A stretch of 64,000 nucleotides of DNA from an uncultured Chlamydiae bacterium (GCA_963696295.1 CAVOJR010000001.1:544001-608000), one strand, 5' to 3'. Counted from the stretch's first letter, positions 28,974 through 29,900 are shown. Numbers and translations are program-made. The notes: generated from the sequence alone by a model not told the origin.

Positions 28974-29900
28974 TTAAATTACAATAAACTTTTTGTAAAT
29001 GATATAGCCTTTCTTTTTATCCGGATGGGGAGTCTCAATTGTCATCACTTTTCCATCTTTTTTAAAGACATCAGCCGCATGGATGTATTTACAGCGGTCT
29101 TGAAATGGGCATTTTTCGGAAGGTGATTCCAGATTGCAAGATTCTGTTTTATACTGCCTATCAACCCTAATAGCGATTAACTCTCTGGGATCGTGTGCCT
29201 TTCCGCACGATATAACATGGCATCTATTGACAAGGGACAGAAAGCATAACGAGGTATATTTCCTTTTAGCTGAAGCTTTGACCTCTTTCTCTAGGGCTTC
29301 CTTAGTAAGGGATGAAGCAGAATCGGTTGAGGAGGTGGAGGGAGAACGTTCATTATTCATTTCAGGATCAAACGTCTCTTTATTTTGAGTGGTTAGAGGA
29401 GATACCGCGGCAGGGGGGTTTTCAGTAATGGGTGAAGGAGTATAAAAATTCTCTTCCGTATTTGGTGCTTTCGTACTGGGACTGGATAAAGGCGTATAAA
29501 ATTTATCTTCAATATTTTGTGTTTTTGAATTGGGACTGGTCTGCGGTGTTAAAAGGGTCACGGTTTTGGGCACTGGCGAGGTAATTGTTTCTTCAGCAAG
29601 ACGGCTGGAAAGAGTCGTAGTTATAGCTACAGGTGAGGAAACTTTCTCATCAAACGTTTTTGTTGCGCTGAAGGGGCTGGATAGAAGGGTCGTGGTTGTG
29701 GAAAAAGGTGAGTAATAATATTCAATACTTTGTGTTTTTGTACTGGGACTGATAACTGGAGAATAAGTTTCAAGGGAGAAAAAGGAACTATTATTCTCTC
29801 TTATTTGAAAACCAAAAGGGTTGTTTTCAATGGGATAGCTAAAAAAGGAATCAAAGGTATAGCTAAAAGAGAAAGTTGCTGTAATAAACATGATTTTCAA
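28974..29900 (-). CDS. S/T/P-rich protein with C-terminal tandem CCCH zinc fingers (ZFP36/TIS11-like)
   Basis: KYTSL-C-x7-C-x4-C-x3-H, an 18-aa linker ending in YKTES, then C-x8-C-x5-C-x3-H. Confidence 0.8.
   Translation of the reverse strand: MKIMFITATFSFSYTFDSFFSYPIENNPFGFQIRENNSSFFSLETYSPVISPSTKTQSIEYYYSPFSTTTTLLSSPFSATKTFDEKVSSPVAITTTLSSRLAEETITSPVPKTVTLLTPQTSPNSKTQNIEDKFYTPLSSPSTKAPNTEENFYTPSPITENPPAAVSPLTTQNKETFDPEMNNERSPSTSSTDSASSLTKEALEKEVKASAKRKYTSLCFLSLVNRCHVISCGKAHDPRELIAIRVDRQYKTESCNLESPSEKCPFQDRCKYIHAADVFKKDGKVMTIETPHPDKKKGYIIYKKFIVI

Follow-up and report, generated by a model that had tools for sequence, protein, structure and literature searches.

Tandem CCCH zinc fingers of the tristetraprolin (TTP/TIS11) type are regarded as a eukaryotic invention, and an open reading frame (ORF) at positions 28974..29900 of a 64,000-nucleotide stretch of DNA from an uncultured Chlamydiae bacterium (GCA_963696295.1 CAVOJR010000001.1:544001-608000; hereafter the window) raises the question of whether such a module can be at home in a bacterium and what it would do there. 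The analysis described here places the product of this ORF (hereafter the query) in a bacterial family that has six copies in one genome and further members in a sister genus and in metagenomes, and a small number of other genomes in this order encode more canonical relatives. The module is a known RNA-binding module in a domain of life from which it had not been reported, with a new conserved structural addition. It is a clear candidate for interdomain gene transfer and provides a natural, compact, apparently pre-organised version of the TTP domain that is relevant to structural and RNA-binding studies, and it suggests that some intracellular bacteria directly target host mRNA turnover.

According to a 2016 review, prokaryotic proteins with two or more CCCH fingers were not known, and some iridoviruses and nidoviruses have tandem zinc-finger (TZF) proteins (PMC5031192). 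No bacterial tandem CCCH or TTP-like protein was found in the literature searched, which comprised open-access papers and preprints, so that a report in a subscription journal is possible; the statement in a first, sequence-only reading of this DNA that no bacterial example had been described is to that extent borne out, in agreement with the review (PMC5031192).

Identity of the C-terminal module

The sequence-only reading had proposed that the query carries a TTP-type pair of CCCH fingers behind a disordered, S/T/P-rich region, and the C-terminal string is exactly as it was quoted there (Table 1). The linker between the fingers is exactly 18 residues long and keeps the YKTE lead-in, residues 237-254 ending in QYKTES, and finger 2 has the canonical Cx8Cx5Cx3H spacing with both aromatic positions filled (F266 and Y272), all as had been noted. 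In TTP/TIS11 proteins the lead-in motif (R/K)YKTEL stands before each finger, and in each finger aromatic residues at +2 from the second and from the third cysteine stack on RNA bases. In finger 2 of the query, the lead-in and the two aromatic positions of the UAUU pocket of TIS11d are retained. Finger 1 has V and K at its two aromatic positions (+2 after the second and third cysteines), and its lead-in, RKYTSL, is shifted by one residue relative to the motif; in most relatives this place is taken by K/N-T-x-(L/F/I)-C.

Searches of the PDB point consistently to one class of CCCH proteins. With the single query sequence, the top three matches are all TTP-family TZFs, namely 9y10_A (E = 4.5e-5), TTP (1m9o, 1.7e-4) and TIS11d (1rgo, 8e-4); the 1m9o alignment spans both fingers, and 9y10_A is aligned across both in one stretch. 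With a profile of the six paralogs described below, the values for 9y10_A, 1m9o and 1rgo are 1.3e-13, 2.2e-12 and 1.7e-12, compared with 2.5e-8 for POS-1 and 2e-4 or worse for MEX-5, Muscleblind (MBNL) and Roquin, so that the TTP family has a lead of at least about four orders of magnitude over every other CCCH type. The assignment to the TTP/TIS11 type is upheld by both searches, and we consider homology of the module with the TTP-type tandem zinc finger, and a bacterial origin of the gene, very probable. In the ESM Atlas, the best scores are 0.87, below the 0.9 level, and the matches count as leads only; the top cluster consists of giant-virus proteins and the rest are eukaryotic zf-CCCH proteins, with no bacterial cluster among those listed.

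A loose tandem-CCCH pattern, run over the six frames of the 3.43-Mb genome, has nine matches, six of them in paralogous genes and three overlapping in one simple repeat, and none in five composition-preserving shuffles of the chromosome; that the pattern in the query is more than chance is confirmed. A cysteine-rich simple repeat with CSVVTCASGH-like units, on the minus strand at about G000:C1:875899-875920 (G000 being the genome and C1 its larger contig), fits the same pattern by chance.

The N-terminal part of the query is as rich in S, T and P as had been described: residues 1-205, counted from the ATG, are 43% S+T+P, with 14 SP/TP sites. It also holds three copies of a motif of 15-16 residues, SP.[ST]K....E..[FY]Y[ST]P. 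As a speculation, this part could be a target of host kinases or a carrier of short motifs. Aromatic-rich N-termini recur in many family members, as in FSFSYTFDSFFSYP..NPFGF (query, window 29820-29900), YSFFYYNTFGFDPN (P0077) and NFSYFFYG (P0059).

Table 1. Features of the query gene and protein, in window coordinates
Feature	Position	Strand	Description
Whole ORF	28974..29900	-	TTG start at 29900 (308 aa) or in-frame ATG at 29891 (305 aa); stop codon 28974-28976
N-terminal part	29265..29900	-	residues 1-212; aromatic-rich opening, then low-complexity, S/T/P-rich; no Pfam family
Zinc finger 1	29193..29246	-	residues 219-236, C219-x7-C227-x4-C232-x3-H236; lead-in RKYTSL
Inter-finger linker	29139..29192	-	18 residues (237-254), ends in QYKTES; 243-246 predicted beta strand
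Zinc finger 2	29079..29138	-	residues 255-274, C255-x8-C264-x5-C270-x3-H274; weak PF25585 match at 261-278
Family-specific C-terminal tail	28977..29078	-	residues 275-308; three predicted beta strands
Sigma-70-like promoter match	29925..29953	-	TTGACA, 17-nt spacer, TAGGAT, upstream TG; ~25-35 nt upstream of start codons

The family, its first finger and the predicted fold

The genome encodes six family members at four loci: the query, a tandem trio at about C1:1882806-1884440, and further copies at about 2316028-2316462 and 2716333-2716764. All but the query are located outside the window and did not figure in the sequence-only reading. A hidden Markov model (HMM) of the family matches exactly 6 of the 27,744 six-frame ORFs of the genome and nothing else at E<=10. 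Pfam matches of the five other paralogs are all below threshold, and nearly all are to CCCH families. Outside this genome, a profile search of 1.84 billion representative sequences gives 5,806 matches at E<=0.001, the named ones being eukaryotic multi-finger proteins (copepod, dinoflagellate). Among the best 150 of these 5,806, 16 short proteins (99-250 aa) align to the whole profile in one stretch, and the ten of them that were looked up are metagenome singletons without a function name. The eight zinc ligands, including C219, C227, C232 and H236 of finger 1, and the lysine of the finger 2 lead-in are invariant in all 22 aligned members. Some members are little more than the domain itself (99-116 aa), and the N-terminal parts are highly variable between paralogs.

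The diagnostic architecture of the family consists of a finger 1 with x7 (or x5) followed by x4 (once x3), a linker of 18 residues (in 20 of 20 family proteins), a finger 2 with x4-14 followed by x5, and a tail of ~35 residues. It is confined to 20 of the 164 proteins compared; a Cx7Cx4 finger also occurs in a few of the rest, never together with an 18-residue linker. The description of finger 1 as degenerate does not survive this comparison: its non-canonical spacing is common to all 20 family proteins, and because the shortening is shared by the whole family, finger 1 is a conserved variant and not the outcome of decay. The related remark that finger 1 lacks aromatics is correct for the query, with its V and K; 19 of the 22 aligned members keep F or Y at +2 after the third cysteine.

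A tree was built from 51 TZF cores (65 columns). It leaves out a trio from the sister genus whose second finger lies outside the extraction pattern, the matches in genomes G015 and G455, and 123 of the 144 other proteins, 21 with a (8,5,18,8,5) TZF being kept. The family forms one branch (support 97/99), within which each of the five non-query paralogs lies closer to a metagenome member than to any of the other four (with a star on three of the pairings), the pairing of the query with P0059 being unsupported (90/10); the duplications within the family appear to be old.

Several further searches yielded no additional members. A narrower family alignment found nothing in metagenome contigs, and its one match among genome contigs is spurious, lying antisense to a glycosidase gene; no relative was found in viral contigs searched with the query domain and with this alignment. 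Matches of the metagenome member P0017 in 31 JGI metagenome loci cover only its first ~60 residues (52-76% identity) and reflect an interspersed DNA repeat of ~170 bp, not a protein module, since the frames that hold the copies are short or unrelated and contain stops; the start called for P0017 probably reads through a copy of this repeat.

Structure models of the module were obtained with AlphaFold2. A six-row alignment produced one good model, with a predicted local distance difference test score (pLDDT) of 84, and four poor ones (44-58); with a 22-row alignment, all five models have a pLDDT of 86-90, a predicted template modelling score of 0.75 and the same topology. Three strands are predicted in the tail (model residues 74-78, 81-87 and 95-103) and a fourth in the linker (39-42). 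On account of these four strands, the linker strand and the tail would hold both fingers on one small sheet, forming one compact domain; the tandem finger domain of TTP is flexible without RNA. TIS11d (1rgo) is the top Foldseek match, with an E-value of 0.12-0.15, a probability of 0.89-0.90, a template modelling score of 0.55 on the target and 34% identity, and it is also the top match in a search against 48,161 chains (Z 4.3, root mean square deviation 4.4 A over 68 residues; next Z 2.8). The comparison with TIS11d that the sequence-only reading had suggested is thus favourable in rank, in both searches, and weak in score.

The tail, which had no place in that reading, comprises 34 residues after finger 2 in the query (~35 in the family) and is conserved across the family. 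It is covered by no fold match, and the tail alone has none above Z 2.8. As modelled, this conserved C-terminal beta tail is a new structural addition to a known RNA-binding module.

Genomic setting and distribution

The window corresponds to positions 544001-608000 of contig C1 (3,298,190 bases, 47.1% GC), which together with C2 (135,310 bases, 42.9% GC) makes up a two-contig, 3.43-Mb assembly that is 97.4% complete and 1.5% contaminated. Bacterial genes of the window include hisS, rlmD, asnS, murJ, a sigma-54 activator, GTP-dependent PEPCK, mreB, an SNF2 helicase, tig, clpX and three tRNAs. Genes for the histone-like Hc1 (77 bits) and for four TLC nucleotide transporters (579-655 bits) are also present in the genome, as is, ~47 kb from the query gene (C1:620209-621504), one for an SctN/FliI-type ATPase that scores above its cut-off (626 bits). 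It is on this ATPase that the presence of a type III secretion apparatus is judged, secretin-like ORFs scoring below the yscC cut-off. Because Hc1, the TLC transporters and the ATPase occur together, we infer that the source organism is a chlamydia-like obligate intracellular bacterium.

The ORF is uninterrupted, with no stops and no introns. Its 305-residue ATG form is the sole entry for this protein (P0002) in a collection of 5.8 billion protein sequences, and a word-indexed protein search with the query returned only the self-match. The query gene is its own transcription unit, convergent with a 524-aa gene (27392-28966) and divergent from a 1245-aa gene (30144-33881, plus strand); the upstream sigma-70-like site is a consensus match only, with two such sites in the region against 3.2 expected in shuffles. 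Its GC content (39.3%) and third-position GC content (35.0%) are in the lowest ~5% of 1,917 long ORFs. The 524-aa neighbour is 60% identical to its counterpart in the sister genus (G001), which belongs to the same family as G000. As G001 keeps the upstream neighbours and then has different genes, with no 1245-aa neighbour detected, the query gene is located at a synteny break with respect to that genome. Searches with the 1245-aa protein gave no match in G001 or in G002, another genome of the same family; this ORF has a hydrophobic C-terminal segment and no Pfam or NCBIfam family. Soil metagenome contigs of 151-282 nt, from three runs of two studies, one of which may be the source sample of the assembly, match parts of the gene and of its upstream region with no differing letters. 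In one contig of 217 nt a single base is missing at 29904, shortly before the TTG; it is otherwise without difference.

The other paralogs adjoin genes for eukaryote-type domains. Directly upstream of the tandem trio is a gene for an OTU-like cysteine protease (G000:C1:1881814-1882656; L066 6815-7657, minus strand). The region of paralog D (G000:C1:2313302-2319873; L067 5302-11873) encodes a protein with PARG-catalytic and OGFr_N domains, a classical tyrosine phosphatase (PF00102, 131 bits) and a protein with ankyrin and SET domains, and a Bles03-domain protein adjoins paralog E. Repeats are found near two of these loci. The genes flanking paralog E (L068 = G000:C1:2708000-2725000; L006) contain long internal repeats of the form KKTVQP.NQDFTSKTSL(Q/E)..., in two full copies and a partial third, as well as SEDGDKKKTSD repeated six times. 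Downstream of the trio (L011 2619-3053, G000:C1 ~1884922-1885356) lie ~3 tandem copies of a ~40-codon unit that is open on both strands (YYRWEHTGGEPEGTW... on the plus strand).

The distribution of the family was surveyed with its profile in two overlapping samples, 400 genomes of the order and 400 of the phylum, both of which contain G000 (one genome was not scored). Matches were found in 9/400 and 8/400 genomes, respectively, the union being ten genomes. G001 encodes a tandem trio with the same tail (L015 = G001:C149:1-2070). The finger change is reversed in this trio: finger 1 is a canonical Cx8Cx5Cx3H, finger 2 is reduced to C-x10-C-x3-H, and the tail is kept. There is no member in G002, a 2.1-Mb genome in one contig, and, among the genomes searched, no match in the family with 1.0-1.2-Mb genomes (0/29) or in family f8 (0/90). 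TZF proteins without the tail are encoded in six genomes of family f5 and one of f32. Three of these proteins pass the PF00642 cut-off (20.5 bits) with two stretches each: G273:C2 with 55 bits, on a contig of >250 kb and next to an FtsX-like permease gene; G322:C59 with 45 bits, between adenylate kinase and ZnuA genes; and G360:C226 with 64 bits, between two SET-domain genes. The bacterial origin of the G360 protein is less secure because its contig is short and its neighbours are SET-domain genes. The match in G015 (E = 6.7e-4) is a different, short-spaced CCCH pair. The query is thus not an isolated curiosity: it is one member of a multi-copy family, and other genomes of the order encode TZF proteins of a more canonical type.

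Proposed function, alternatives and known systems

What could such a module do in a chlamydia-like bacterium? The reading that we favour is that a ~100-aa C-terminal module, descended from a eukaryotic TTP/TIS11-type tandem CCCH zinc finger, would have retained the eight zinc ligands, the 18-residue linker and the YK(T) lead-in, with a shortened finger 1 and an added beta tail. The proteins would be exported into the eukaryotic host cell, probably via a type III system, and would there bind single-stranded U/A-rich or similar RNA, in which case host transcripts would more likely be occupied or redirected than subjected to a copy of the decay function of TTP. The C-terminus of TTP carries a CNOT1-binding motif for partner docking. 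A TTP-style deadenylase docking tail is unlikely in the query, as far as its sequence can tell, because the conserved tail follows finger 2 directly and is the last part of the protein, and this favours the occupation or re-routing of host transcripts over decay mimicry. We infer zinc binding, RNA binding, secretion and a host effect for the family; taken on its own, the proposal of export with host RNA as the target has, in our estimate, slightly better than even chances, and for the whole reading of an exported TTP-derived family that binds host RNA we put the chances at even. The eukaryote-type domains encoded beside the paralogs, the low GC content of the query gene and its place at a synteny break count in favour of an effector role. 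A more specific version, possible though doubtful, is that the proteins are 'anti-TTP' effectors, in which a rigidified finger pair reads elements of host mRNA 3'-untranslated regions without a decay-recruiting tail and shields or re-routes the transcripts; if true, it would reveal a route, not known before, by which intracellular bacteria seize eukaryotic post-transcriptional control. Under this version each of the six paralogs, which have different finger 2 loops and N-terminal parts, may address its own set of RNAs or partners.

Several observations weigh against the favoured reading. No CCCH model of Pfam reaches its cut-off on the query: the PF00642 search that the sequence-only reading had named as a check fails, with no match even at E<=10 (gathering cut-off 20.5 bits), the only Pfam match, to PF25585, scores 15 bits where 30 are required, and no Pfam or NCBIfam family scores above threshold. 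PF00642 at E<=0.1 touches only 5 of the 22 family members, the best value being 2.4e-4. The structural matches are weak in absolute terms (Z 4.3), with none in Foldseek at E<=0.001. The F or Y at +2 after the third cysteine of finger 1, kept in 19 of 22 members, is absent from three members that cluster on the tree, namely the query, P0059 and P0075, and because this stacking-position aromatic is missing, finger 1 of the query paralog may bind RNA poorly. Only 10-12 residues precede finger 1 in paralog C of G000, in P0014 and in P0019, and the genes of the tandem trio have overlapping stops and starts, like an ordinary bacterial operon. Finally, the tree of 51 TZF cores points to no donor and to no direction of transfer.

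The operon-like trio with its overlapping stop and start codons would also fit a family that acts inside the bacterium, as a small RNA-binding regulator of, for example, the developmental cycle, the acquired eukaryotic module never having been exported; the near domain-only members of 99-116 aa and the sigma-70-like promoter match point the same way. We regard this as unlikely, given that the N-terminal parts are disordered, SP/TP-rich and highly variable between paralogs, that the neighbours of the paralogs are genes for eukaryote-type host-interaction domains, and that the module was found in only a few of the genomes sampled (9/400, 8/400), within an order in which every genome characterised here is obligately intracellular-like. 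That the query ORF is eukaryotic contamination, a misassembly or a functionless decaying remnant is hardly credible. The GC content of the gene is below that of its flanks, no Pfam family is above threshold, the neighbour at 30144-33881 has no match in two genomes of the same family, and the gene lies where synteny with G001 ends; against this, it is uninterrupted by stops or introns and lies inside a 3.3-Mb contig between bacterial genes, it has its place among six paralogs, all of them intact and spread over four loci, in which every zinc ligand is conserved, and identical short contigs were recovered from three runs in two soil metagenome studies (one of them possibly the source sample). 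The sequence-only reading had named eukaryotic contamination as a way in which it could fail; with bacterial housekeeping genes on both sides in a 3.30-Mb contig, the segment is bacterial, and contamination or misassembly of the query gene is very unlikely.

Export could also have been combined with a change of ligand, the rigidified pair of fingers binding, in place of AU-rich mRNA, poly(ADP-ribose), structured or viral RNA, DNA or protein. The commonest weak Pfam matches in the family are to ZAP-like zf-CCCH_10 (9/22), PARP12-like tandem fingers are matched by 3/22, a PARG-domain gene lies beside one paralog, finger 1 is shortened and in the query is without an aromatic at the stacking position, and the predicted beta-sheet clamp has no counterpart in TIS11d. 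Such a change of ligand nevertheless seems distinctly improbable to us in view of a profile similarity to the TTP family that is at least four orders of magnitude above that to any other CCCH class and of the strict conservation of the 18-residue linker and the YK(T) lead-in.

Binding of host RNA by an exported, TTP-derived module, which remains the reading that we favour, can be placed beside several known systems. The members of the TTP family, among them ZFP36/TTP (1m9o), ZFP36L2/TIS11d bound to UUAUUUAUU (1rgo) and a 'C3H1-type domain-containing protein' (9y10/9y13), share with the query the two CCCH fingers, the linker of 18 residues and, in finger 2, the YKTE-type lead-in and both aromatics, and they are its best sequence and fold matches. 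The query differs from them in that finger 1 is Cx7Cx4Cx3H instead of Cx8Cx5Cx3H, so that the canonical spacing is found in one finger only, with a lead-in that is out of register; in addition, it has a conserved C-terminal beta tail that ends the protein, is without TTP-like flanking regions and comes from a bacterium. The canonical TZF proteins of G273, G322 and G360 are, like the query, small bacterial ORFs with two CCCH fingers, whereas their lead-ins are YKT(E/Q)(L/P)C, both fingers are Cx7-8Cx5Cx3H, PF00642 is passed and the tail is absent. The nearest neighbours of the query family on the tree are the G273 and G396 proteins, with weak support (89/64). POS-1 (6nzl), MEX-5 (6pmg) and Muscleblind share with the TTP class CCCH fingers that bind single-stranded RNA, and some Muscleblind fingers resemble finger 1 of the query in spacing, the second fingers of 3d2q and 5u6l being Cx7Cx4Cx3H. 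From the query family these proteins are more distant (E = 2.5e-8 for POS-1 and 2e-4 to 2e-3 for the others) and differ in linker length and lead-ins.

Intracellular bacteria such as chlamydiae and Legionella have effectors with eukaryote-like domains, including OTU, SET, ankyrin and tyrosine-phosphatase proteins. In the literature searched, no RNA-binding TZF was found in that repertoire, and the translocation of the query is putative. In other respects, the query family is like these effectors: it consists of a eukaryote-type module, is multi-copy and patchily distributed, and adjoins genes of this very kind.

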